Shown piece by piece: positions 9,610 to 52,655 of a stretch of 64,000 nucleotides of DNA. This DNA is from a virus. The notes below the pieces were generated by a model. That model was given only the letters and a program-made list of their open reading frames with translations. It was not told the origin of the DNA and did no database searches. The translations under genes were made by a program, and so were the position numbers. How positions within the stretch are numbered: position 1 is the stretch's first letter; every line of letters begins with the position of its first letter. The DNA is taken from IMG/VR virus record IMGVR_UViG_3300028584_001241. One strand, written 5' to 3'.

Positions 9610-9638
9610 TTGACTTTGATAAAAATAAGGCGTAGAAT
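9610..9638 (+). promoter_or_regulatory. sigma70 promoter of the Pth2 operon
   Basis: TTGACT-17-TAGAAT. Confidence 0.75.
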
Positions 9639-9671
9639 TATAACTGTAAATCAAACAAAGGAGATTACATC

Positions 9672-10133
9672 ATGTTGTAGATTGATAATACTGAATTCGA
9701 CTTCATCACAAAAGAGGCTATTCTTAGCCAATACACTCAATTTGTTCCTTCGGACAAAGACTCACATTACTACATCTATTCAATCATTCGCGGCGATTTA
9801 AATATGCCAACAGGTAAGCTCGCAGCTCAAGCTGGTCACGCTTATACAGATGCATTGACAAACGCACAAGAATCACACCCAGATAACGTTAAACATTATA
9901 GAAATCGTCAATCAGGCGGCTCTAAGGTTACGTTAAAAGCCAAAAACGAAGATCATTTAATTAAAGCATACAACCAAGCTGTTGCTGCTGGATTGCCATG
10001 CTCAATTATTGTCGATCAAGGCCACGTTTTACCACCACACTTTGATGGTTCGCCAATCATTACCGCTCTCGGTATTGGGCCTTGCACCAAAGAACAAGTA
10101 AAACAAATCACCAAGAAATTTCAGTGTGTATAA
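9672..10133 (+). CDS. pth2: peptidyl-tRNA hydrolase Pth2 family, with in-frame TAG at codon 3
   Basis: YIYSIIRGDLNMPTGKLAAQAGHA, KVTLK, DQG, TALGIGP are Pth2 motifs; SD AAGGAG then ATG TTG TAG ATT; the conserved first strand lies upstream of the track's ATG 9804. Confidence 0.85.
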
Positions 10134-10142
10134 GGGGGACTT

Positions 10143-10910
10143 ATGAATAAAGAATTACTATTAACTATTATTCGTGAGCACAACATCACATTAACTGAAA
10201 CATCCATTCAACGATTAATAGAGTTGGCTGAAATTCAGGCCAACTGGGATGGTCGTGATGCAGAACCTATGGATGAGAATTCCTGCAGAGATCTCTGTCA
10301 TTTTTTAAGCACTGTAAAAGAAGCTATCCCAACTGACATTGGATTTTTCTTTAATCATGAAGGATCTATGAGCATTAACTGGATGTTAGGTGAAAGATTA
10401 GTGGACGTTTGCTTCGAACCAGAAGCTACTTATCTTTACATGACAGGTTATGACGATGGTATTGCACTCCCTAGGTCAGTGTTTAAACATTTCAAATACA
10501 CCGATCCAGAAAGCTGCTTTATCAGCTATAAAACAAAATTGGAGATGGTTTCTGGAATGTTATATAAATTGAGACAAGAGACAGCTAAAAATTTAGTTGA
10601 AGTGATTGCTTATGACTATGGTTGGGGCGAACATGGAGATGAATTAGAAATGAATACAGATGCCTTACATTCATTTGTTCATTTTATAGATAACTTAGAG
10701 GTGTTACCGGAAAAAATAATTATTTTTTTAACCCACGAAGGATTCTTAGAAGTCGTGTTGATGGATTATGATCCGCGTCACGAAATAGAATTTACACCAG
10801 AAGGGTTGCTTTTTTTCTTAGCCCCCGAATATGACATGACAGAAGTCAGCAAAAACAATTTTAACCAATATAAAGATATTAACGATTTTCTAACAGGAGA
10901 AACAAAATGA
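10143..10910 (+). CDS. hypothetical protein with internal domain duplication
   Basis: NWDG..EPMD..HF..P..I.FF.HEG repeated as GWGE..LEMN..HF..P..I.FLTHEG. Confidence 0.75.
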   Translation: MNKELLLTIIREHNITLTETSIQRLIELAEIQANWDGRDAEPMDENSCRDLCHFLSTVKEAIPTDIGFFFNHEGSMSINWMLGERLVDVCFEPEATYLYMTGYDDGIALPRSVFKHFKYTDPESCFISYKTKLEMVSGMLYKLRQETAKNLVEVIAYDYGWGEHGDELEMNTDALHSFVHFIDNLEVLPEKIIIFLTHEGFLEVVLMDYDPRHEIEFTPEGLLFFLAPEYDMTEVSKNNFNQYKDINDFLTGETK

Positions 10911-11269
10911 GCAGATTAGCAATGATAAACACCATGAAAATTTTTTTAAAAACAGAAAGACCGCATCGTGACGGTGATGGACACAAAGTTAAAGTATTAT
11001 TCTTAAAAGACTATGTGTTGTATGCATTATTAAGAGAGAAAAAAGACTTTACTAACTGTGCTACTGATAAATCGCAAGCTATTTCGATTGCTCTAGACTG
11101 GTTAAGTGCTGTCGAAAGATCCAGAAAACAACTAGAACTTAATAACTTAGAATCGTGGGATTTAAAAGCATTAAAATATAAAATAGGTGTTGACTTCACT
11201 GTTGAAGATTTGGTACAATTAGAACACGCAATAAAGAACCAAATAGATAAACTAAATGTTGAAAAGTAA
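10907..11269 (+). CDS. hypothetical protein (YVLYALLR motif)
   Basis: SD AGGAG, ATGA overlap with the previous gene; motif resembles FMLYAIIK of 11900. Confidence 0.75.
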   Translation: MSRLAMINTMKIFLKTERPHRDGDGHKVKVLFLKDYVLYALLREKKDFTNCATDKSQAISIALDWLSAVERSRKQLELNNLESWDLKALKYKIGVDFTVEDLVQLEHAIKNQIDKLNVEK

Positions 11270-11297
11270 TCAAAAACTAACCATTAGGAGAATGACC

Positions 11298-11897
11298 ATG
11301 ACTATGTAGATTGATAAAATTGAAAACCTTAGCTTCAACGATCTTGTTAAAGAGATGAAAGCTTGTGAACAAACACAAGGCATGAATGTTCTTCAACATG
11401 GATTGTCAGTCAATAAATACTTTCAGGATTTGAAAGATCACATTATTGATGGAAAACCATTAGCTCTCGAATGGAGACTTCCTGATTGGATTTACAATAA
11501 ATCTATCTGGAGTAACTTGGCAGATGACAAAGACATCAAAACCTATCAGATTTATCACGACTGTGGTAAGCCATTCTGTTTGACAATTGATGAAAATGGT
11601 AACCGTCACTTCCCTGACCATGCACAAGCATCTGGTCTAATCTGGCGTAAAATCGGTGGCACTGAACTTCAAGCTCAATTGATGGAGCATGATATGGATA
11701 TTCATTTGCTTAAAATGGATGACTTTGAAGATTTCTATGCACTTCCGTTCGCTGCAACCCTATTGATTACTGGTTTCTGTGAGATTCACAGCAATGCTGC
11801 TATGTTTGGTGGTATTGAATCAACAAGTTTTAAAATCAAGTGGAAAAAGATTAACAAAATCGGCAAAAAATTTAATGATAAACTATTAGGAGAATAA
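11298..11897 (+). CDS. HD-domain phosphohydrolase with in-frame TAG at codon 4
   Basis: QHG...YHDCGKP...HFPDHA...EHDMDIH; AGGAG-7nt-ATG ACT ATG TAG ATT GAT, open in frame into ATG 11355. Confidence 0.8.
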
Positions 11898-11899
11898 TC

Positions 11900-12328
11900 A
11901 TGAACGCTATTGAAAAAAATGAAACTATCGAAACAACTGAAATGAATAAAAGAGACTTAATTAAAAAAGCGGTTGTCACATTCCGTGAAGGCTATAAAGA
12001 GAATAAACATGTTTGCACCTTAGAAGTCTTTATGTTGTATGCAATCATCAAAGGAAAACATGTGGATGTAACCATTAAGGATAATCACTACAAAGAAGGC
12101 TGCAATCCATTTGATCACCACCCAGTATTCAAATATAACATTGAAAAGGTATCAAATATCAATGCGGGTATTTTGCTGGAGTATGGACAAGGTGCAATCA
12201 GAATTATTTCGAAGAGTAATTATATGGTTAACTCAGTCAATGAAAAAGTTAAATACTTCTTCGGGCTAACACCAGTGGAATTTGAGTTCTTGCTCAATCA
12301 ATATGTAGAAGAAAGAAAAGCCTCTTAA
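11900..12328 (+). CDS. hypothetical protein (FMLYAIIKG motif)
   Basis: SD AGGAG; last gene of the Pth2 operon. Confidence 0.75.
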   Translation: MNAIEKNETIETTEMNKRDLIKKAVVTFREGYKENKHVCTLEVFMLYAIIKGKHVDVTIKDNHYKEGCNPFDHHPVFKYNIEKVSNINAGILLEYGQGAIRIISKSNYMVNSVNEKVKYFFGLTPVEFEFLLNQYVEERKAS

Positions 12329-13059
12329 TGAGGCTTTCTTTTTGATACGTGAGGTAACTCATAATCTATGACAGAAACAATAGTATTTGGTAAGAACTCA
12401 AACGCATTTTCATCGTGTGCATAATGAAGATTAATAAAGTTAGCTTGTATGTATTCTTTGAATTCAGCAACATCATTGAAAACAATTCCATTTACTGGTT
12501 TCTTCTCCATAATGATTTGATTAACCGTTTTTTCATAATCGTGAGGATAAGATGCTGTTGGCTTATCAATCGGTATTAAGTCGCCCACTCTAAAACTGGT
12601 AAAGTTTGGATAACCATATTCAAATGGAATACCATAGGGTGCGGCTTGCCTCATCTCTTCCAAGGAGTATGACTTAGTATTACTGTTAATAAAGAAAAGA
12701 GAATGCCCAGATTGACCTTGCCATTCGCCATTTTTAGGAATGTTATGTGTGTCTAATTCAACAATATTTTGACTGATGTAGTCAACAATAAAGCGTACAT
12801 TTTTCCCCTTTTTGTCGTTCTTAGTAGCACTCATGGAAAACTTGTTAATGACATATCCTCTGACTTCTGAATTTCGATTAACATAGTCCACTAATCTTAT
12901 TAAGGTATCGGGTTTTTCGTAATCAAATTTTTTCATGAGATACACTATCTCTTCATCAAGCTCGGCCTGAGAGGTTATTCGTTGGTGTCTATTTTCTGTT
13001 TGTGCAAATGAAGTTGTAGTAATTAAAAATAAGCTAGTAAGTAATATGCGTTTTAACAT
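12325..13059 (-). CDS. secreted hypothetical protein
   Basis: Signal peptide ending SFA. Confidence 0.75.
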   Translation of the reverse strand: MLKRILLTSLFLITTTSFAQTENRHQRITSQAELDEEIVYLMKKFDYEKPDTLIRLVDYVNRNSEVRGYVINKFSMSATKNDKKGKNVRFIVDYISQNIVELDTHNIPKNGEWQGQSGHSLFFINSNTKSYSLEEMRQAAPYGIPFEYGYPNFTSFRVGDLIPIDKPTASYPHDYEKTVNQIIMEKKPVNGIVFNDVAEFKEYIQANFINLHYAHDENAFEFLPNTIVSVIDYELPHVSKRKPH

Positions 13060-13207
13060 TATTTTCTATGTGTGTTTATATAAAATATTACACTATAATA
13101 CTAAAAAGTCAAAATTAGATTTAATTATTTATTGTTATTTTTTTATAAAGTGTTAAGCTTGAAAATGAAAGGATCTCTAAATGATAATTTAAAAAAGGTG
13201 GTTAATT

Positions 13208-37538: not shown

Positions 37539-37736
37539 ATGAAAAAGCAAAAGAATCAAAAGCCACAAGAATCAAGAAATTTCGTTGCTAAATATATGCA
37601 TGAAATGGGTAACTGTGGTCTTCGTGTTGTAGAAGATAAAAAAGCCAAGTCTAAACGTGGCGAAGGTAAAAATTCATTCAATAAGGCTTCTTTGAGAAAA
37701 GATTCTTCGGAAGCCTCACGATCTGTTACTCTATAA
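37539..37736 (+). CDS. small basic protein, possibly ArfA-like
   Basis: AGGAG SD; RNFVAKYMH...RVVEDKKAK; hairpin 37684-37716 inside the 3' coding region. Confidence 0.55.
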   Translation: MKKQKNQKPQESRNFVAKYMHEMGNCGLRVVEDKKAKSKRGEGKNSFNKASLRKDSSEASRSVTL

Positions 37737-39639: not shown

Positions 39640-40215
39640 ATGACACTTGAAGAAAAAATTTTAGACATTCTTAACAAAGATAAAAAAGACGTGAGAATAC
39701 CTGAACCATCAAACAAAACGGACTCAGAAATTTGGCTTTATACTCATAAAGATAAAGATAACTCCTTCCAGATTTTTTTTGCCAACATAACTAATGGAAA
39801 TATGGCTCATATCAGAAGAGATGAGGATTCAGAAAATTATGATAAAGTTTTTGAAGCGTCCGATAAGGAAATATACAATAAAATTATTGAAGTCTATGAA
39901 GAAAATATGGCTTTTTTTAATCGTTATAAGTCTATTATAAAAAATGATAGAAACGTGCGTATTTATCTAGAAGATCCTTATTTTTACTACAACAAGCGTT
40001 CTAAAAAATTGTATGCTATTCCGACAATAAAAGTCCAAACTATTGCGGCGTCGTTCTCATTTTATCTCTATCCAAGTCAACTAAAAAAAATAAATATTGC
40101 TGTTGATAAAATTTACGAAGACTTTTATCAGCATCTTTTTCAATTCTTTTTAGAGAAACCATTGAATAAGTATTCAGAAGAAGAATTGACATTGTTCCAC
40201 ATGATTAAAATTTAA
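39640..40215 (+). CDS. hypothetical protein with C-terminal tail motif
   Basis: Ends SEEELTLFHMIKI. Confidence 0.7.
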   Translation: MTLEEKILDILNKDKKDVRIPEPSNKTDSEIWLYTHKDKDNSFQIFFANITNGNMAHIRRDEDSENYDKVFEASDKEIYNKIIEVYEENMAFFNRYKSIIKNDRNVRIYLEDPYFYYNKRSKKLYAIPTIKVQTIAASFSFYLYPSQLKKINIAVDKIYEDFYQHLFQFFLEKPLNKYSEEELTLFHMIKI

Positions 40216-40227
40216 GGAATAACTATA

Positions 40228-41016
40228 ATGAAAGAACAAGAAATCAAACACATTGAAGCTTTCAGTGATTTTTTTGGAAAGTCTATTAGACCTGAATACA
40301 CCACTTTAAGAAATGAACGTGGTGATTACCATGTCACGAACAATTCGCCTTTTGATAATAAAATACTTCGTTGTCATTTTAAAAAGTGTGCATTTCCTGT
40401 CACTATCGCAGAAACCATCTATAATCATGATTGTAGCTTTCATTTAACTAATATGAGTGTGAGCGATGTCGCCTACCTTTTTAGAGACAACGATTATAAT
40501 TATGATGTAGTTGAACAAATCATCAATGAGCTATTTAAATTCGGTCAAGTTTTTAGCTTCTATACTGAAATGTCACCTATTCAAAATATTAAGTTGGAAA
40601 ATAACTTCAATAAGAATGGCATTCAAAAGGCTGTATTTGTTCCTACAGTGACAAAGTTAGCACTTTCAACAGTATTAGCTGACAAAAATGCAAGTGGTAA
40701 GCCAACAAAGAAAACTGCCATCGTTCATTTAGCTTTTATGATATCGGATGACAACGAAATTCACCCTGTATTAAACTTAGCAATCCCCTATTCAGTCTCA
40801 AAATTTACTCGGTTTTCCATTCATCTTCATCCATCTAAAAGAGATGAACAAATTAAGCATATTCCTATCATTTTAAAAGAATTTGAAAATTTGCTGATTG
40901 GACACTTAGATTTTGTGCTGACAAAATTTTTAAAAATTAAGAAAAATGAATTATCTAAGATGACGCTAGAAGAAAAAAAGAATTATCTTCCGGTTATCGA
41001 GATGGCTAGAATTTAA
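40228..41016 (+). CDS. paralog array member 1 of 7
   Basis: NYNYD..INELF..G, NEIHP, LHPS; ends VIEMARI. Confidence 0.8.
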   Translation: MKEQEIKHIEAFSDFFGKSIRPEYTTLRNERGDYHVTNNSPFDNKILRCHFKKCAFPVTIAETIYNHDCSFHLTNMSVSDVAYLFRDNDYNYDVVEQIINELFKFGQVFSFYTEMSPIQNIKLENNFNKNGIQKAVFVPTVTKLALSTVLADKNASGKPTKKTAIVHLAFMISDDNEIHPVLNLAIPYSVSKFTRFSIHLHPSKRDEQIKHIPIILKEFENLLIGHLDFVLTKFLKIKKNELSKMTLEEKKNYLPVIEMARI

Positions 41017-41045
41017 ATTTAACGACATTAAAGAGGAGTCAAAAA

Positions 41046-41819
41046 ATGAATGATCAAAATTACAAAACAGCTTTCAATAAATTATTTAATGGATATACAA
41101 CCGAAAATGAATTTTGGAGAAGACCTGATGCAAACTGGTGCGAAATCACAGGCATACTGAATATGAGTGGAAGAAAGTTCAAAGATAGTTATATTAAAGC
41201 TTATTTTTATCATAACCCAGAGACGTACATTTACACTCATTCTGCGATCACGTTTGAAAAAATACCAAAAAGAATGCTAAAAGAAATTTTTAATAATCAA
41301 AATTACAATTATGACTTAGTTGACACAATAATTAATGAACTATATACAATAGGTGAATCATTTAGTTTTTATAAAGATATGTCACCTATTCAAAATATTA
41401 ATATAGAAAACACACTAAATCTTGACCAATTTGGACAATCAACACCAAAAAATGTCACAAAAATAATATTAGCTTCTTTTTTAAAAGATAAAAGAGCAGG
41501 TTCACAACCTATAAAAAGAATGGCTAGACAATCCATAAAATTCAAATTGGTTGATGATAATATATGTCCAATAATGGAATTAATCATTCCTTATTCGAAC
41601 ACTGATTACTTCCATTCAATGATTCATTTACACCCATCAATGAAAGATAAACAAATAAACAAAATAGAAGAATTGAAAGCTGATTTTACAGTACAACTAG
41701 AAGAACAACTTGAAATTGTGTTAAATAAAAAACTTAAAATTTCTAAAAATGATATAAAGAATATGACTTTGCAAGAAAAGCGAAATTATATACCAGTTCT
41801 AGAAATGCTGACTGTTTAA
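41046..41819 (+). CDS. paralog array member 2 of 7
   Basis: Same motifs; ends VLEMLTV. Confidence 0.8.
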   Translation: MNDQNYKTAFNKLFNGYTTENEFWRRPDANWCEITGILNMSGRKFKDSYIKAYFYHNPETYIYTHSAITFEKIPKRMLKEIFNNQNYNYDLVDTIINELYTIGESFSFYKDMSPIQNINIENTLNLDQFGQSTPKNVTKIILASFLKDKRAGSQPIKRMARQSIKFKLVDDNICPIMELIIPYSNTDYFHSMIHLHPSMKDKQINKIEELKADFTVQLEEQLEIVLNKKLKISKNDIKNMTLQEKRNYIPVLEMLTV

Positions 41820-41846
41820 TGATAGCTAATTGTAACGGAAATTAAA

Positions 41847-42623
41847 ATGAATGATAAAGAACCAAATTATGTAGAAGTATTTAATATTTTCTTTGGAAAA
41901 AAACCTTTTTCTACTGAAGGTCATATTGATAAAACAGAAACAAAAACCACTTACGGTTACGATATAATGAGCATCTTTGTATCTTGTAGATTTCATAAAG
42001 TCAATGTTAATATTATGTCAAAGCCTTATAGTTATACTTGTAATATTTCTTTTAAAAACTTATCTAAACAACCTGTTAAAGAATTGTTTGACGCTAAAAA
42101 CTATAATTACGACCTAATTGATGAAACTATCAATGAACTCTTTAAAATAGGGCAATCATATAATTTTTATAAAGGCATGACACCTATTAAAAATAATAGA
42201 TTAGAAGACTCTTTTATGAGAGGCGGATATCCTAGCGGAAACAGCTCTAAAAACTTGACAAAATTAACACTGTCAGGATTTTTAACAGATAAATATACAG
42301 ATGATAATCCTTTGAAAAAAATATCGAAACAACATGTAAATTTTTATTGGTCTGAAAATAATGAAATCTATCCAATCATTACATTGTTTTTTCCTTATTC
42401 TTCAACTGCAGATTTTATTTGTTTTATTAACTTGCATCCATCACAGCGAGAGTTACAAATAAAAAATTTAATTCAAATAAAGAAAGATTTTACTGCTGAA
42501 TTAGAAGAACAGCTTAATACTGTTTTAAAAAGAAAACTTAAATTTAAAAAAGAAGATTTATTAACATTGACAACACAAGAAAAATTAAATTATATTCCGG
42601 TTGTAGAGATGGCAAGAATATAG
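41847..42623 (+). CDS. paralog array member 3 of 7
   Basis: Same motifs; ends VVEMARI at a TAG stop. Confidence 0.8.
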   Translation: MNDKEPNYVEVFNIFFGKKPFSTEGHIDKTETKTTYGYDIMSIFVSCRFHKVNVNIMSKPYSYTCNISFKNLSKQPVKELFDAKNYNYDLIDETINELFKIGQSYNFYKGMTPIKNNRLEDSFMRGGYPSGNSSKNLTKLTLSGFLTDKYTDDNPLKKISKQHVNFYWSENNEIYPIITLFFPYSSTADFICFINLHPSQRELQIKNLIQIKKDFTAELEEQLNTVLKRKLKFKKEDLLTLTTQEKLNYIPVVEMARI

Positions 42624-42658
42624 AATAGTCAAAAATATAATATTAAAATACATAAAAG

Positions 42659-43465
42659 GTGAAATATATGAGTAGTAAAGCTGATAAATATTTAATGGTT
42701 TTTAATAACTTTTTAAAAGATAAAGTAATTGATACTAGGCTTGTGCAGAAACACAATGAATCACTTTCTCAAATTATTGGTATCTACAATGATCCAAACC
42801 AAACGTTATCTAACTACTATACAACTTTAACATTTTCTCCAAATGCTTCAAAAGTCAATAATATAGAATATACTGACATATGTGATATTAGGGTCACCAA
42901 TATGCCAGATAGATATTTCGATGAAATGATGGATTCTCAAAATTATAACCACCTATTGGTTGCTGATATTATTAAAGAAGTTTTTAATATTGGCAAACGG
43001 TTTGAATTCTATCAAGAGATATCACCAATCAAGAACATAAAAATCAGTGAAGCTTTTACTAATAACGGTGATGAACGTTATGTAAGTCTAAAAAATATAG
43101 CAAAGTTAAAACTATCAACATTTTTAAAAGAAAAAGGATCAAGCATTAAAACATTAAACAAATTCATCTATTACAATATTCAATTTCTTATAAATAACGA
43201 TAATGAAATTCATCCAATAATGTATTTATTTGTTCCATATTGTTCATCTTATAATTTCATGACAACTATAAATCTACATCATTCTCAAAAAGAAAATCAA
43301 TTAAAAAGGATCGAAGAATTAAAAAATGAAGTCACTATGAAATTTGAACAACACTTAGATGGCTTATTAAATAGAAGTCTTAAGATTAAAAAAGATGAAA
43401 TCGCTAACATGTCCTTAAACGATAAGCTAAGTTATATTCCTGTACTTGAAATGAACAAAATTTAG
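42659..43465 (+). CDS. paralog array member 4 of 7
   Basis: Same motifs; ends VLEMNKI at a TAG stop. Confidence 0.8.
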   Translation: MKYMSSKADKYLMVFNNFLKDKVIDTRLVQKHNESLSQIIGIYNDPNQTLSNYYTTLTFSPNASKVNNIEYTDICDIRVTNMPDRYFDEMMDSQNYNHLLVADIIKEVFNIGKRFEFYQEISPIKNIKISEAFTNNGDERYVSLKNIAKLKLSTFLKEKGSSIKTLNKFIYYNIQFLINNDNEIHPIMYLFVPYCSSYNFMTTINLHHSQKENQLKRIEELKNEVTMKFEQHLDGLLNRSLKIKKDEIANMSLNDKLSYIPVLEMNKI

Positions 43466-43519
43466 TTGATGAGAATTGAAAAAAATGATATAATAACACT
43501 CTTCAAAGAGGTCATTTAA

Positions 43520-44344
43520 ATGGAAAAAAATAACGAACAATCAATGCTTATTAACATTTTACAAGCAACATTTAAAGAAAAGTATTTTGACGAAATAACT
43601 GTATCTGAGGGCGATAGTTATTCTGGAACTGTTGTCAAATTAAATTTGAAAGATAGTGATGGTTTCATAAGTTGTAAATTTAGAGGGCGAGGGCATATTA
43701 ATTTTTCCATGAATTATGAATCTGAATGTGTCATTGGTTTTAAAAACATAGAAATACCTATGATCGCCACATTACTTAATGAGAATAACTACAATTATGA
43801 AATCGTTAAGCAATCAATCAATGAATTTTTTAAGCTGGGTGAGAAATGTAAATTATTTAAGTCATTGAAAAAAGTTAAAAGCTTAAAAATAGAAGATAAC
43901 TTATCAATGGGACATAGGTGGGATAACGGTGATTATGAGACTCTATTTTCATATACTCAAAATATTTCAAATATACAGTTTTCAAATTTCTACAAAACTG
44001 AGAATCATAAAAAAGCGATTAGACCTAAAAAATTGAAGGGTAAAAATATGACGTTGTATTATAAATTTACACTTAAAAATGGCAAACTACAGCCTTTTGC
44101 TCATATTGATTATCCAGTAGCTCCTAACGTTAGTATTCCATTTGTTTACAATATTCATGCTGATTTCATTGAAGAATCTAATGATAAATTTAAGAAATAC
44201 TACAATGAATTGGAAGAAAGACTTAATAAAAGAGTTAATCAAATTTTGAAAAAAGATTTAAATTTGACTGATAAAACTCTATCAGAACTGTCAATAGATG
44301 ATAAATTAAACTATTTGATAATTGCTGAAATGTCAGAAATATAA
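43520..44344 (+). CDS. paralog array member 5 of 7
   Basis: NYNYE..INEFF..G; ends IAEMSEI. Confidence 0.8.
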   Translation: MEKNNEQSMLINILQATFKEKYFDEITVSEGDSYSGTVVKLNLKDSDGFISCKFRGRGHINFSMNYESECVIGFKNIEIPMIATLLNENNYNYEIVKQSINEFFKLGEKCKLFKSLKKVKSLKIEDNLSMGHRWDNGDYETLFSYTQNISNIQFSNFYKTENHKKAIRPKKLKGKNMTLYYKFTLKNGKLQPFAHIDYPVAPNVSIPFVYNIHADFIEESNDKFKKYYNELEERLNKRVNQILKKDLNLTDKTLSELSIDDKLNYLIIAEMSEI

Positions 44345-44362
44345 TAGCATCATCTTAAACCT

Positions 44363-45220
44363 ATGGAGACAATAATGAATCAAGATCAAATCACTTGTTT
44401 AGAAGCCTACTTGAAAATATTCAATGGAACGCTTTTTGATCAACCATCCTTCTATGATGCAAGTGGACAGACTAGTATTGGTTCTATTATCGCCATAAAT
44501 AAAATCCAAAATGCTGACATATCAATACAAGATGAAAACATTAAACAATCAATCCAGATAGGTTTTGGAAAAAACAATAATTATATGTATAAAGATCATG
44601 ACTATGATTTCAATTGTTTATTCCAATTTACCAATATTAATAAAAAAATGGTCGCTTCTTTTTTCCAGAATATAAAATACAATTATGATGTTATTCATGA
44701 TGCAATCCATGCTTTTTATAAGATAGGTCATGATTATGGACTATTTGACTCAATGGACACAATAGCTGATTTAAGACTGCAAAATTTCTTTAAAGCTCCT
44801 TATAAAGCCAATGGAAAATCAAATAAGTTAACTTCTACTGGAATAAAAGTATCCGAGATAAACTTTACTGACTTCTTTAAAACAAAGAAGAACGCTCATA
44901 AGGGCAAGCTGAAAAGTAGAAGGCTTTCTGTCTATTATAAATTTATAGTGAAAGATGGTGAAATACATCCATTGGTTTTGGTATCAATTCCAGTATCTAT
45001 TAATCATACACAAAGCATTACATTAGACATTCATCCGTCTGCAAAAGAATTTAATGAAAAGAAGCTAATAGAAGGTTTGGAAAAACTTGATGAAACATTA
45101 AAAGAGCGAATTGATATGATCCTTCGTAAAGAATTAAAATTAAAAAATAAATTTTTAGAGACACTGACCTTTGAAGATAAATTGAATTATTTAAAAGTCG
45201 CTGAGATGGCAATGATTTAA
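44363..45220 (+). CDS. paralog array member 6 of 7
   Basis: GEIHP, DIHPS; ends VAEMAMI. Confidence 0.8.
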   Translation: METIMNQDQITCLEAYLKIFNGTLFDQPSFYDASGQTSIGSIIAINKIQNADISIQDENIKQSIQIGFGKNNNYMYKDHDYDFNCLFQFTNINKKMVASFFQNIKYNYDVIHDAIHAFYKIGHDYGLFDSMDTIADLRLQNFFKAPYKANGKSNKLTSTGIKVSEINFTDFFKTKKNAHKGKLKSRRLSVYYKFIVKDGEIHPLVLVSIPVSINHTQSITLDIHPSAKEFNEKKLIEGLEKLDETLKERIDMILRKELKLKNKFLETLTFEDKLNYLKVAEMAMI

Positions 45221-45236
45221 GCTAAGAGGTGGCCTA

Positions 45237-46031
45237 ATGTTAAATAGAGATATATTGTTATCAGCGTACAAAAAAATGTTTGATAACACACCATTTGAAA
45301 AGTATCTACATCCTAAAGACACGTATTATGAATACCGTATTGTAGGCATTGATGAAAGTGTTCAAAGAAATACCAGTTCGGTGGCATGTGTATTTACAAA
45401 AGCAAACCCAGATAAAATGATACCGAATATAAAGTATGAATACATATGCACAATGGCTTTTAATTATGTAACAAATGCAGTCATTGATGAATTCTTTCGA
45501 TCAAAAAATTATGACTATGAACTTGTTAATAGAGCGTTAAAAGAAGTGACTGATTTAGGTATTGAATATGGTTTTATTAAAGAGTTTACAATAGGGGACT
45601 TTTCAGTAGAAGAACAATTTAAAAGCACACTAATTAACAAAACAAGTTCGTTTAGACCAGCCGGTGTGATTACTTTTTCAAATGCTTTAGTTGAATTTGA
45701 TAATGATTTTGGGAAAATGATTTATAAAAGAACACTGAATGTCGAGGTTGTTTTCATCGTCAAGAATAATGAAATACATCCAGTATTGATGATAGCGTTT
45801 CCATTCACTGCTAAAAAGAAATATTACATGTATCTCGATATACATAAAGATCACAAACATAATCATGAGTATGAGTTGTTAAATATACAACAAAGTTGTA
45901 TTAAAAAGATGAACGAACACGTTGATATTTTATTAATGGAAAACTTTAAGATGAATAATTCAGATCTGAATAAAATGAATTTAGAGGCCAAGCTCGATTA
46001 TCTTAAAGTTCTTGAGATGGGAATGATTTAA
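45237..46031 (+). CDS. paralog array member 7 of 7
   Basis: NYDYE, NEIHP; ends VLEMGMI. Confidence 0.8.
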   Translation: MLNRDILLSAYKKMFDNTPFEKYLHPKDTYYEYRIVGIDESVQRNTSSVACVFTKANPDKMIPNIKYEYICTMAFNYVTNAVIDEFFRSKNYDYELVNRALKEVTDLGIEYGFIKEFTIGDFSVEEQFKSTLINKTSSFRPAGVITFSNALVEFDNDFGKMIYKRTLNVEVVFIVKNNEIHPVLMIAFPFTAKKKYYMYLDIHKDHKHNHEYELLNIQQSCIKKMNEHVDILLMENFKMNNSDLNKMNLEAKLDYLKVLEMGMI

Positions 46032-50303: not shown

Positions 50304-52655
50304 TTAAGTCGGTGAGCTTTTGTTTTTTCTTGGTTTTAATACAACTGAAAGATCAGGTCTTGTTGCTAGGAACTTTTCTCTCAATGTGATCAAATCAAGT
50401 TCTCTTTCTTCTTTGGACATTTTTTTAACACCATCCAAAAATTCAATAGCAAATGTTTTATCATCAGCTTTAATATTCAACCCACTCACCAAAGCATTCA
50501 GATCAGTTTTAACACCTTTTAAAGCATCCACGTTAATCTGGCTTACTGAATCACTCATCGCCTTCCAAAATTGATAATAAGGCAGTTTAACCATAAACAT
50601 ACCTGTACCTTCAACCACAAAGCCTTCCATGTGTCTTTTTGTCTTGAATGCACTCTCATTACTTAATGCATTGCAAAATTTCTCAAAATCTTCAAACGAT
50701 CTAAAGCTAACAAATTTCTTTTTAGCCTCAATCTTTTCAAAATTAGCAGCAAAGGCTTCCAAGTTTTCATATGTCAATTGTGAGAATACAACATCACGCT
50801 TCACAACAGATAATAAAACAATTGAAGATTCATCAGCTTTAATAATCTTTGAATCATTAACTGGATCAATGACTTCAAAAATGTAGTTGACATTGTGTTT
50901 ATTCGCAAACACTTTCATAAACTCTAGTTCACTGGTTTTTAGTTTACTGAATACCATTTTTCTGAAGGCTTCTGTTTCTGCTGTATCAATACCATTCTTT
51001 GATGTAAAGACCAAAGCGGTATGTTCAACATCATAACCAATCATTCCCAAACGCCCATCTTCTTGTTCAAAAACATTTAATGAACCCGTTGTTTTCGATT
51101 TAAGAGATTCTAATGTATTAGATGCAACTCCTTTTTCATTAAGCTCATAAAATTTATCAAAACCACGAGCAACAATATCTCCTGTTTTATTATTAACAAC
51201 AAGGCCACGAATCTTTACAGACGATTCTTCAAGTGGCTGACCCACAACATCATCTTTAAAATTAAAAGTAGACAAGTGAGGTTTTGAGATAGAAACAGTT
51301 TCTACCAACAACTTATTACTTCTAAGATCCTGAAGCAATGCAACACCTGTTTTATGACCATCTACTTTACGGTTTAAGAAATTAGCCACTGTACTTTCTG
51401 GTTCAGTAACGCCAAACATACCAGACTCTTTTTCAATCCTAAGTACTTCTTCTTTATTAAATACTTTATTCGTAATATAGATACCATTAAAACCTTCACG
51501 GCTGACTCTCAATACTGGCAAGCTACCACCATATTCTACATCAGCTTCCAAGGCAAAGCTTTTAGCATAACTATTAAAGTCTAATTTATGTTGGTTTCTA
51601 TGACCATGAACCTGATGCCATTCGTTATCTTTATTCTGTTCATTAAACTTACCATCGACATCATAGCTATATGGGCCATAGCCACGCATGTATTCATCAG
51701 ATGTTAAAAGACGTGGAAACTCAGGAACTGCAGTCAATCCAGCATGTGTAGTCATAATCTTTTTGCCATTGTATTGAACAAAACTAAACAAGTGCATTTT
51801 TCTATACAACTCTTTCATATCATCTTTTGTAAACCCAGCTTTTTCAAGTTGTGGCAAAGTATTCTTCATAAACTCATCAGGTGGTGTGTAGATATCATGG
51901 CTATAGTTATACATATGTTTCTCATGATTACCCGCAAGGATCAAGACATTTGGATATTCCATATATTTTCTTACAAAGTGAAGGCACTTATCATTTTCAA
52001 TACCACGATCAAGATAATCACCAACAAAAATGTAGAATTCATCTTTTTTGAAACCACCTTCTAGTTCAAAGTATCTTTTCAATGGATAGAAAGATCCTTG
52101 AAGATCACCAATATAATGTATCTTCTTGTAAGCACTCAAATCAACTATCAAATCTTCCGGTGAAGCTTTTACAAACTTAATAGCCTCTTCTGGAGTAATG
52201 ATTTTCGTTCTATCATCAAATGAAGCATTGGTGAATAGTACATAGTTTCTATCAATAGCCTCTTTTGGCAATCTTTTATAAGGTTCACGTTGTTCATTAC
52301 GAGCGTAATAGAATTCTACTGGTTGCAATGGAAATTGAACCACACGATAATCATAATCAAACTTAGTCAAAAGTTCCATGTAGGAATCAATCGCTTTTTG
52401 ATCTTGGTTAAGGTTATCAATAAAGAGAACCCCACCCATTTGAAGTCTCAATTCAAGAGCTTCCATAAATTTACCGAAGACTAAATCCTCTCTGTTGTTA
52501 GAGAGTACAAGACGGCCATCCATATCAGTAGCCGAACCAGCATAAATATGTCTGATAGCATCAAGTGATAAGCTGTGGGCATCTAAACCATGCTCTCTAA
52601 TAAAAGTAGACTTACCTGTTCCCGGCATGGCTGATAAGAAGTAAACAATTCTCAT
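50304..52655 (-). CDS. polynucleotide kinase - metallophosphoesterase - RNA ligase-like fusion
   Basis: AMPGTGKST P-loop; GDLQG, GDYLDRG, GNHE, HGH; ARGFDKF, EQEDG, EGFVV ligase motifs. Confidence 0.88.
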   Translation of the reverse strand: MRIVYFLSAMPGTGKSTFIREHGLDAHSLSLDAIRHIYAGSATDMDGRLVLSNNREDLVFGKFMEALELRLQMGGVLFIDNLNQDQKAIDSYMELLTKFDYDYRVVQFPLQPVEFYYARNEQREPYKRLPKEAIDRNYVLFTNASFDDRTKIITPEEAIKFVKASPEDLIVDLSAYKKIHYIGDLQGSFYPLKRYFELEGGFKKDEFYIFVGDYLDRGIENDKCLHFVRKYMEYPNVLILAGNHEKHMYNYSHDIYTPPDEFMKNTLPQLEKAGFTKDDMKELYRKMHLFSFVQYNGKKIMTTHAGLTAVPEFPRLLTSDEYMRGYGPYSYDVDGKFNEQNKDNEWHQVHGHRNQHKLDFNSYAKSFALEADVEYGGSLPVLRVSREGFNGIYITNKVFNKEEVLRIEKESGMFGVTEPESTVANFLNRKVDGHKTGVALLQDLRSNKLLVETVSISKPHLSTFNFKDDVVGQPLEESSVKIRGLVVNNKTGDIVARGFDKFYELNEKGVASNTLESLKSKTTGSLNVFEQEDGRLGMIGYDVEHTALVFTSKNGIDTAETEAFRKMVFSKLKTSELEFMKVFANKHNVNYIFEVIDPVNDSKIIKADESSIVLLSVVKRDVVFSQLTYENLEAFAANFEKIEAKKKFVSFRSFEDFEKFCNALSNESAFKTKRHMEGFVVEGTGMFMVKLPYYQFWKAMSDSVSQINVDALKGVKTDLNALVSGLNIKADDKTFAIEFLDGVKKMSKEERELDLITLREKFLATRPDLSVVLKPRKNKSSPT

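Follow-up and report, generated by a model that had tools for sequence, protein, structure and literature searches.

The RF2 gene prfB is expressed by a +1 frameshift at an early UGA, the Streptomyces bldA tRNA reads a rare UUA sense codon, and the SelC and PylT tRNAs add selenocysteine and pyrrolysine via their own enzymes. Borges et al. (bioRxiv 10.1101/2021.08.26.457843) proposed that phages with recoded stop codons (codes 15 and 4) rely on suppressors for expression, and the authors describing phage XacN1 reported that the target gene of its CUA tRNAs was not identifiable (PMC5852040). Iyer et al. (PMC7824862), in whose work stop codons and suppressors go unmentioned, noted jumbo-phage Pth2 and considered it likely to act in ribosome rescue, and Pth is able to reverse toxin acetylation of aminoacyl-tRNA (PMC9241777). 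The locus described here, located in the whole 64-kb stretch of DNA that was analyzed (the window), carries one early in-frame TAG in each of two genes, pth2 and a gene for an HD-fold protein. It is a real and conserved case, apparently unpublished, and probably a variant of tRNA-gated expression; no description of such a gate was found in the literature covered, which left out most subscription journals.

Early in-frame TAG codons in pth2 and the HD gene

The window has a GC content of 31% and consists predominantly of orphan genes; its genes include those for a ClpA-like ATPase, a Pnkp-like kinase-phosphatase-ligase, a Sir2 protein, and a type IV pilin-like protein. Proteins nearly identical to its Pth2 are encoded on contigs of 1.84–1.92 Mb, and the cultured relatives are megaplasmids of 0.7–1.3 Mb and jumbo phages; we infer that the window is part of a giant plasmid-like element of ~1.8 Mb. 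The Pnkp-like gene (50304–52655, minus strand) encodes a kinase-phosphoesterase-RNA ligase fusion and is a further RNA-repair gene, ungated. A 65-amino acid basic protein (37539–37736, plus strand) weakly matches DUF7230 in Pfam (E 3.5e-4) and no NCBIfam model, its ArfA-like label being unconfirmed, and eight co-directional ORFs of similar size (190–285 amino acids) lie in a run at 39640–46031 (plus strand).

The gated unit is on the plus strand and is preceded by a sigma70-type promoter-like site (9610–9638; 10/12 match, 17-nt spacer), called from its consensus match alone. The Shine-Dalgarno sequence (SD) of pth2 (9658–9663), which is kept in relatives, is followed after 8 nt by gate 1 (9672–9688), comprising ATG 9672, one codon (TTG), an in-frame TAG (9678–80), and a 13-nt context shared with the second gate (9676–9688). 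Another 150 open codons follow, giving a Pth2-family peptidyl-tRNA hydrolase of 153 amino acids with TAG readthrough (9672–10133; profile and model evidence). The earliest in-frame ATG, GTG, or TTG past the TAG is codon 42 (9804), which lacks an SD, and the conventional call from this ATG is a protein of 109 amino acids without strand 1 of the Pth2 fold. This strand (residues 30–37 in the structure model) is encoded upstream of ATG 9804, and the full Pth2 domain in Pfam (PF01981; 89.4 bits versus a cut-off of 23, residues 32–148) also needs the upstream region. A gene starting 10 nt past the pth2 stop encodes a 255-amino acid protein (10143–10910) for which no family was found and which is present in close relatives, and its stop is overlapped by the start of a gene for a 120-amino acid protein (10907–11269; called from its reading frame, no function assigned). 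These two genes are inserted between pth2 and the HD gene, which has its own promoter-like site (11190–11219; 10/12 match with an extended -10, again a consensus match alone). Gate 2 (11286–11317) consists of an SD (11286–90), 7 nt, ATG 11298, two codons, an in-frame TAG (11307–09), and the shared context (11305–11317), with 195 open codons after the TAG and the earliest later start, also without an SD, at codon 16; both gates are supported by the sequence and by relatives. With readthrough, the product is an HD-fold protein of 199 amino acids (PHROG 14850; 11298–11897; profile and model evidence), some of which may be translated from ATG 11355. The unit ends with a gene for a 142-amino acid protein (11900–12328; called from its reading frame, no function assigned) and a bidirectional intrinsic-terminator-like hairpin (12317–12337).

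The shared 13-mer occurs exactly twice in the 64 kb, at 9676 and 11305, where 0.011 exact copies are expected by chance (with one mismatch allowed, the shuffle mean is 0.40), and, once a TAG is present at both sites, its 10 flanking bases would match by chance with a probability of 5e-6. The layout of an SD, an ATG, a short leader, a TAG, and a long open frame was found in only two of the 82 long frames of the window, pth2 and the HD gene, and in the same two genes (2/214 frames) of a 181-kb IMG/VR relative (G001), in which both TAGs are present. A third layout match, at 13181, has a TAA with an ordinary ATG six codons on and was rejected as such a gate, and a third near-copy of the gate motif in G001 is intergenic. 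Another 13 assemblies, which come from different samples, and a Logan contig (L280) also contain the pth2 TAG; judged from this recurrence and from the two TAGs of G001, an assembly error is ruled out. TAG terminates 9/82 long frames, which indicates that the standard code is used in the window; genome-wide recoding of TAG (code 15) does not apply, as TAG serves as a stop and only two window genes are gated. Folding revealed no RNA structure 3' of either TAG (z -0.2 and +0.5), and selenocysteine or pyrrolysine insertion does not fit, as no downstream RNA element was found and the position is not conserved. The arrangement also differs from that of prfB, since the stop and its preceding codon vary among relatives and the window gate is in frame.

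Silencing or decay of the genes, with nonsense mutations copied between pth2 and the HD gene, would agree with the databases containing only calls of 109 and 180 amino acids or calls with TAG=Q. This explanation is almost certainly wrong, as the frames are intact, the nucleotide changes among relatives between the TAG and ATG 9804 are mostly at third codon positions, and the block is kept down to 45% protein identity. Judged from sequence, the two TAGs are best described as a programmed, conserved translational gate and not as random nonsense. The earlier note on this DNA had reported the in-frame TAG of each gene, the absence of a pth2 start before 9804, and the strand 1 sequence encoded ahead of it, had argued from the identical 13-mer against random nonsense, and had regarded TAG as a real stop elsewhere, all of which was borne out; the search that it proposed for other genes with this layout returned only pth2 and the HD gene in both the window and G001.

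Gates and matching tRNAs in relatives

Approximately 145 loci with Pth2 relatives were retrieved and 87 distinct ones, at 43–98% identity, were counted. An SD was required for counting a gate, and an earlier lenient count without this requirement (95/95) was dropped for the stricter one. Conservation of the early block, which the earlier note had proposed to check, extends to 86 of the 87 genes, in which an in-frame stop or a +1 shift interrupts translation close to the start, and one gene is intact; as the relatives share ancestry, such gate counts are non-independent tests. The in-frame class (33/87) has an SD-ATG, 1–9 codons, and a stop, mostly TAG (TGA in 3 and TAA in 2), and the base after the in-frame stop is a purine in 32/34 cases. 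In the +1 class (43/87, with L198 placed there by eye), a short leader precedes a gene body shifted to the +1 frame, and a conserved sequence usually comes next; the latter matched no Rfam family and is called a motif only, since the one case folded gave no significantly stable hairpin (z +0.9). Ten of the 87 are blocked with a weak SD or a longer leader, as judged by eye. Cellular control Pth2 genes have a normal start in 24/24 cases. Gate types are scattered across the Pth2 tree, a quick version with many unresolved forks that was used only for this scatter and for the seven-row clade of the window; inside that clade, both gates of one relative (L168) have switched to TAA. Within one element, pth2 and the HD gene have the same gate type. 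The HD gene is gated in 29/29 loci where it is separated from pth2 and in 2/21 where the two are adjacent (two false regex matches having been taken out), which fits HD expression having to be conditional, through either coupling or a lock of its own. Annotations of the Pth2 and HD genes of megaplasmids and jumbo phages are systematically wrong in showing these genes as truncated.

The sole ungated Pth2 gene of the set, from a Variovorax megaplasmid (L249/L420), has a start that overlaps the upstream gene, and hence it may be coupled. Another locus (L179:615–1200) has a +2 gate, a stop followed by CG, and a nearby tRNA loop complementary to five bases, and may represent a five-base codon or a sequencing error.

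Termination followed by reinitiation, or a non-AUG start, at the ATT after the stop would yield both proteins at a constant low level. The codon after the stop is ATT in both window genes and in 15/34 in-frame relatives, and the HD gene of L504 has an ATG after its stop; against this, about a dozen different codons were seen after the stop, many of them not start-like (GAC, AAG, GAT, AAC, AAA), the SD is 17–19 nt from the ATT, and the body of the +1 class is in another frame with no start. Reinitiation would also leave the matching tRNAs, described below, unexplained. The earlier note had raised this possibility, which is weakened to the point of being distinctly improbable, and the TGA-TAA pair that it had pointed out in another frame is not conserved in L169, L172, or L182.

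In 9 Pth2 loci with a TAG gate, a CUA tRNA lies no more than ~3 kb away, and in phages Arash and ME3 one stands next to a TAG-gated Pth2-like gene; in L135 (68% identity, with a TAG-ATT-GAT start as well) and L187, the CUA tRNA is adjacent. TGA gates go with UCA tRNAs, and +1 gates go with tRNAs that have an anticodon loop of 9 nt (once 8 nt) complementary to the four bases at the shift site, which can be TAGC, TAAC, TGAC, or TAGA or the non-stop TTGC, CACC, or CATT; 16 such pairs of +1 gate and tRNA, with 6 different four-base codons, were called by script. A matching suppressor is present in 7/8 complete records with an in-frame gate, and the gate-to-tRNA distance reaches 232 kb in Atu_ph07, >200 kb in G007, and 111 kb in XacN1. 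A scan of viral contigs with an anticodon-arm pattern resulted in 26 CUA-tRNA loci, none of them from the lineage of the window; 11 of the 26 hold a Pth2, Pth2-like, or HD gene, and three show clear TAG gates, one of them (L504) on both genes. In a Vibrio megaplasmid, two tRNA copies upstream of pth2 were missed by both ARAGORN and Rfam. At the level of sequence comparison, the co-variation of gate and tRNA speaks for a dedicated tRNA as the gatekeeper rather than for sensing of RF1 or for reinitiation. Two other candidates were rejected, stop-hopping to a matching codon on account of an inconsistent take-off/landing pair, and A-to-I editing on account of explaining neither the +1 gates nor the tRNA co-variation.

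Among cultured megaplasmids, +1 gates are located beside 9-nt-loop tRNAs in L412:2269–2480 (pMPPla107), L414 (pBASL58), L415, L416, L417, and L421; ARAGORN calls these tRNAs Ser, Asp, or Ile, and they are candidates for natural four-base decoding. An odd tRNA loop in Rhizobium pRlX5 (L566:356–433), 58 kb from pth2, may read the TAGC gate of this plasmid with one G-U pair. In two cultured phages that carry CUA tRNAs, XacN1 (L283:2490–2500) and RsoM2USA (L282), the HD homolog begins with an early TAG and its annotated start lies further downstream.

No CUA tRNA was found in the window by ARAGORN, Rfam, or a loose scan (no Rfam family matched the window at all), or in G001, where the 27 tRNA matches are Leu, Ala, Arg, and Met arrays and degenerate copies. 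The nearest clade has none within 3 kb, and none was found in the 20 kb around L288 or L409; the TAA-gated relatives likewise showed no UUA tRNA in the DNA covered. The phage record G008 (543 kb, rated complete) is TAG-gated, and none of its tRNAs that were examined has a CUA anticodon; a related MAG (G004) has CUA tRNAs on other contigs of a bin that may mix elements. The UAG-reading key of the window's lock is predicted, and it was not seen in the ~10% of the 1.8-Mb element covered by the window and G001. The element-encoded amber suppressor, the second option of the earlier note, is supported by the CUA tRNAs beside the TAG gates of relatives and has no counterpart in the window or G001. 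The tRNA arrays of G001 are large, with only Leu in L129 (G001 77600–79500) and only Ala, Arg, and Met in L130. Inside the Ala/Arg array of L130 are two tRNA-like genes (G001 156509–156583 and 156693–156766) with intact acceptor and T arms and CCA and a 4-nt loop replacing the anticodon, which may serve as decoys; a relative has a gene of this kind as well (L409:2097–2171).

Release-factor sensing, the main reading of the earlier note in its RF1-specific form, would require no dedicated tRNA, as inhibition or sequestration of RF1 would let near-cognate tRNAs of the host leak through the gate, in the manner of prfB autoregulation. The lack of a suppressor tRNA in the element DNA covered and in G008 agrees with this, a backup peptidyl-tRNA hydrolase would be sensible when termination fails, and RF1 stays a competitor under tRNA gating and could modulate output. 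This reading is considered unlikely, since both L168 genes have switched to TAA, which is also read by RF2, inside the window's own clade, gates of TGA, of a stop plus C in the +1 class, and of four sense bases occur, and the anticodons track the gate. Alternatively, the lineage could have lost its own tRNA, with the gate opening only with the tRNA of a co-infecting amber-reading phage. No local tRNA was found across the whole nearest clade, and sensing of co-infecting phages by suppressor tRNAs has been proposed for recoded phages (bioRxiv 10.1101/2021.08.26.457843); given that nearly all complete relatives hold their own matching tRNA, often at a distance, and that the scanned DNA is only about a tenth of the element, we regard a sensor of foreign suppressors as very improbable.

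Proposed mechanism and predicted enzymes

The preferred explanation, with a probability of roughly two in three, is a lock formed by both TAGs, the key to which is a dedicated amber tRNA that is encoded elsewhere on the giant element and competes with RF1; translation of the two genes probably depends on readthrough of the stop by this tRNA. As the sequence shows, a ribosome starting at either SD-led ATG meets the UAG after 2–3 codons; by default RF1 would free a peptide of 2–3 residues. A charged CUA tRNA would outcompete RF1, helped by the purine after the stop, so that Pth2 and the HD protein are made at full length, and translational coupling would carry expression on into the two genes after pth2. 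The HD gene would need its own copy of the lock because the inserted genes uncoupled it from pth2. In many relatives the tRNA is encoded 100–400 nt upstream of pth2 on the same strand, suggesting that the switch probably acts on charging or competitiveness and not on transcription.

The first gated protein is a Pth2-family hydrolase predicted to act on peptidyl- or N-acyl-aminoacyl-tRNA. It has the same fold as Pth2 (PF01981; PDB 2zv3) and most of its catalytic positions, with Lys46, Asp112, and Thr128 invariant; in the archaeal D-x-G-x-T motif, Val takes the place of the Thr that should follow D-x-G-H, and the scores are below the archaeal Pth2 equivalog cut-offs (72 versus 82 bits for TIGR00283 and 83 versus 126 bits for NF003314). 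The HD protein has no Pfam match at E 0.01. Its residues H30, H83-D84, H104, D128, and H132 are invariant (His...His-Asp...Asp), and the best folds for its model (pLDDT 96) are HD proteins, with a TM of ~0.6 and an E of only 3e-3. HD domains of tRNA nucleotidyltransferases strip phosphate groups from tRNA 3' ends. By both profile and structure, the nearest solved relative is the HD domain of an A-adding tRNA nucleotidyltransferase, with weak E values of 3e-3 to 6e-3; the fold and most catalytic positions are common to that domain (PDB 3wfo) and the HD protein of the window, which differs in standing alone, is 16–20% identical, and has a predicted activity only.

Both enzymes may unblock tRNA 3' ends. 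If the rest of the explanation holds, there is somewhat less than an even chance that Pth2 strips peptidyl or N-acyl groups and the HD protein a phosphate-type block, with the odd tRNA acting as a probe that succeeds when the normal pool is attacked or depleted, so that the kit is made on demand. The opening signal is the least certain step, our best guess being that normal tRNAs are attacked or depleted. More tentatively still, these loci might constitute a private, evolving lock-and-key code of giant plasmids and jumbo phages, in which one tRNA reads the stop or natural four-base codon at the beginning of tRNA-repair genes and serves as a readout of the tRNA pool. The counter-defense kit would be made only during attack on tRNAs, and the lock would be a portable cassette that is copied onto genes losing their coupling and works in trans over hundreds of kilobases.

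Comparison with known systems

If the proposed gating is correct, the orphan suppressor tRNAs of standard-code phages gain a concrete target, which the XacN1 authors looked for and did not find (PMC5852040), and translation-rescue enzymes are regulated in a new way. The relatives imply natural four-base decoding by 9-nt-loop tRNAs, which is relevant to genetic-code expansion. Cultured systems with related loci include Pseudomonas sp. Leaf58 (pBASL58), Bosea plasmids, and phages Atu_ph07, Phosso, ME3, and Arash.

As in the recoded phages (Borges et al., bioRxiv 10.1101/2021.08.26.457843), the proposal is that, in a host with the standard code, a suppressor tRNA of the element activates genes interrupted by in-frame stops. 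Recoding there affects numerous late or lysis genes, whereas here the code is standard, one stop per gene lies at codon 3–4 of only two tRNA-metabolism genes, and relatives swap to four-base codons. Jumbo phage XacN1, with its orphan CUA tRNAs, is likewise a standard-code phage, and its HD homolog has an SD, an ATG, one codon, and a TAG; the target was left unfound in that paper, and the gate described here is a candidate for it. An early stop as a conditional gate on a translation factor is shared with prfB, which differs in that the gate here has no slippery P-site codon or internal SD, is in frame, and is linked to a tRNA instead of a release factor. With bldA and SelC/PylT, the locus has in common that a special tRNA licenses a chosen gene set, but in the present case the bodies of the tRNAs are diverse, the stop falls in an unconserved N-terminal tail, and no RNA structure lies 3' of the stop. 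To these systems the locus adds a megaplasmid-like case, two locked genes that have no matching tRNA nearby, the coupling rule for the HD gene, and evidence of distant tRNA action.
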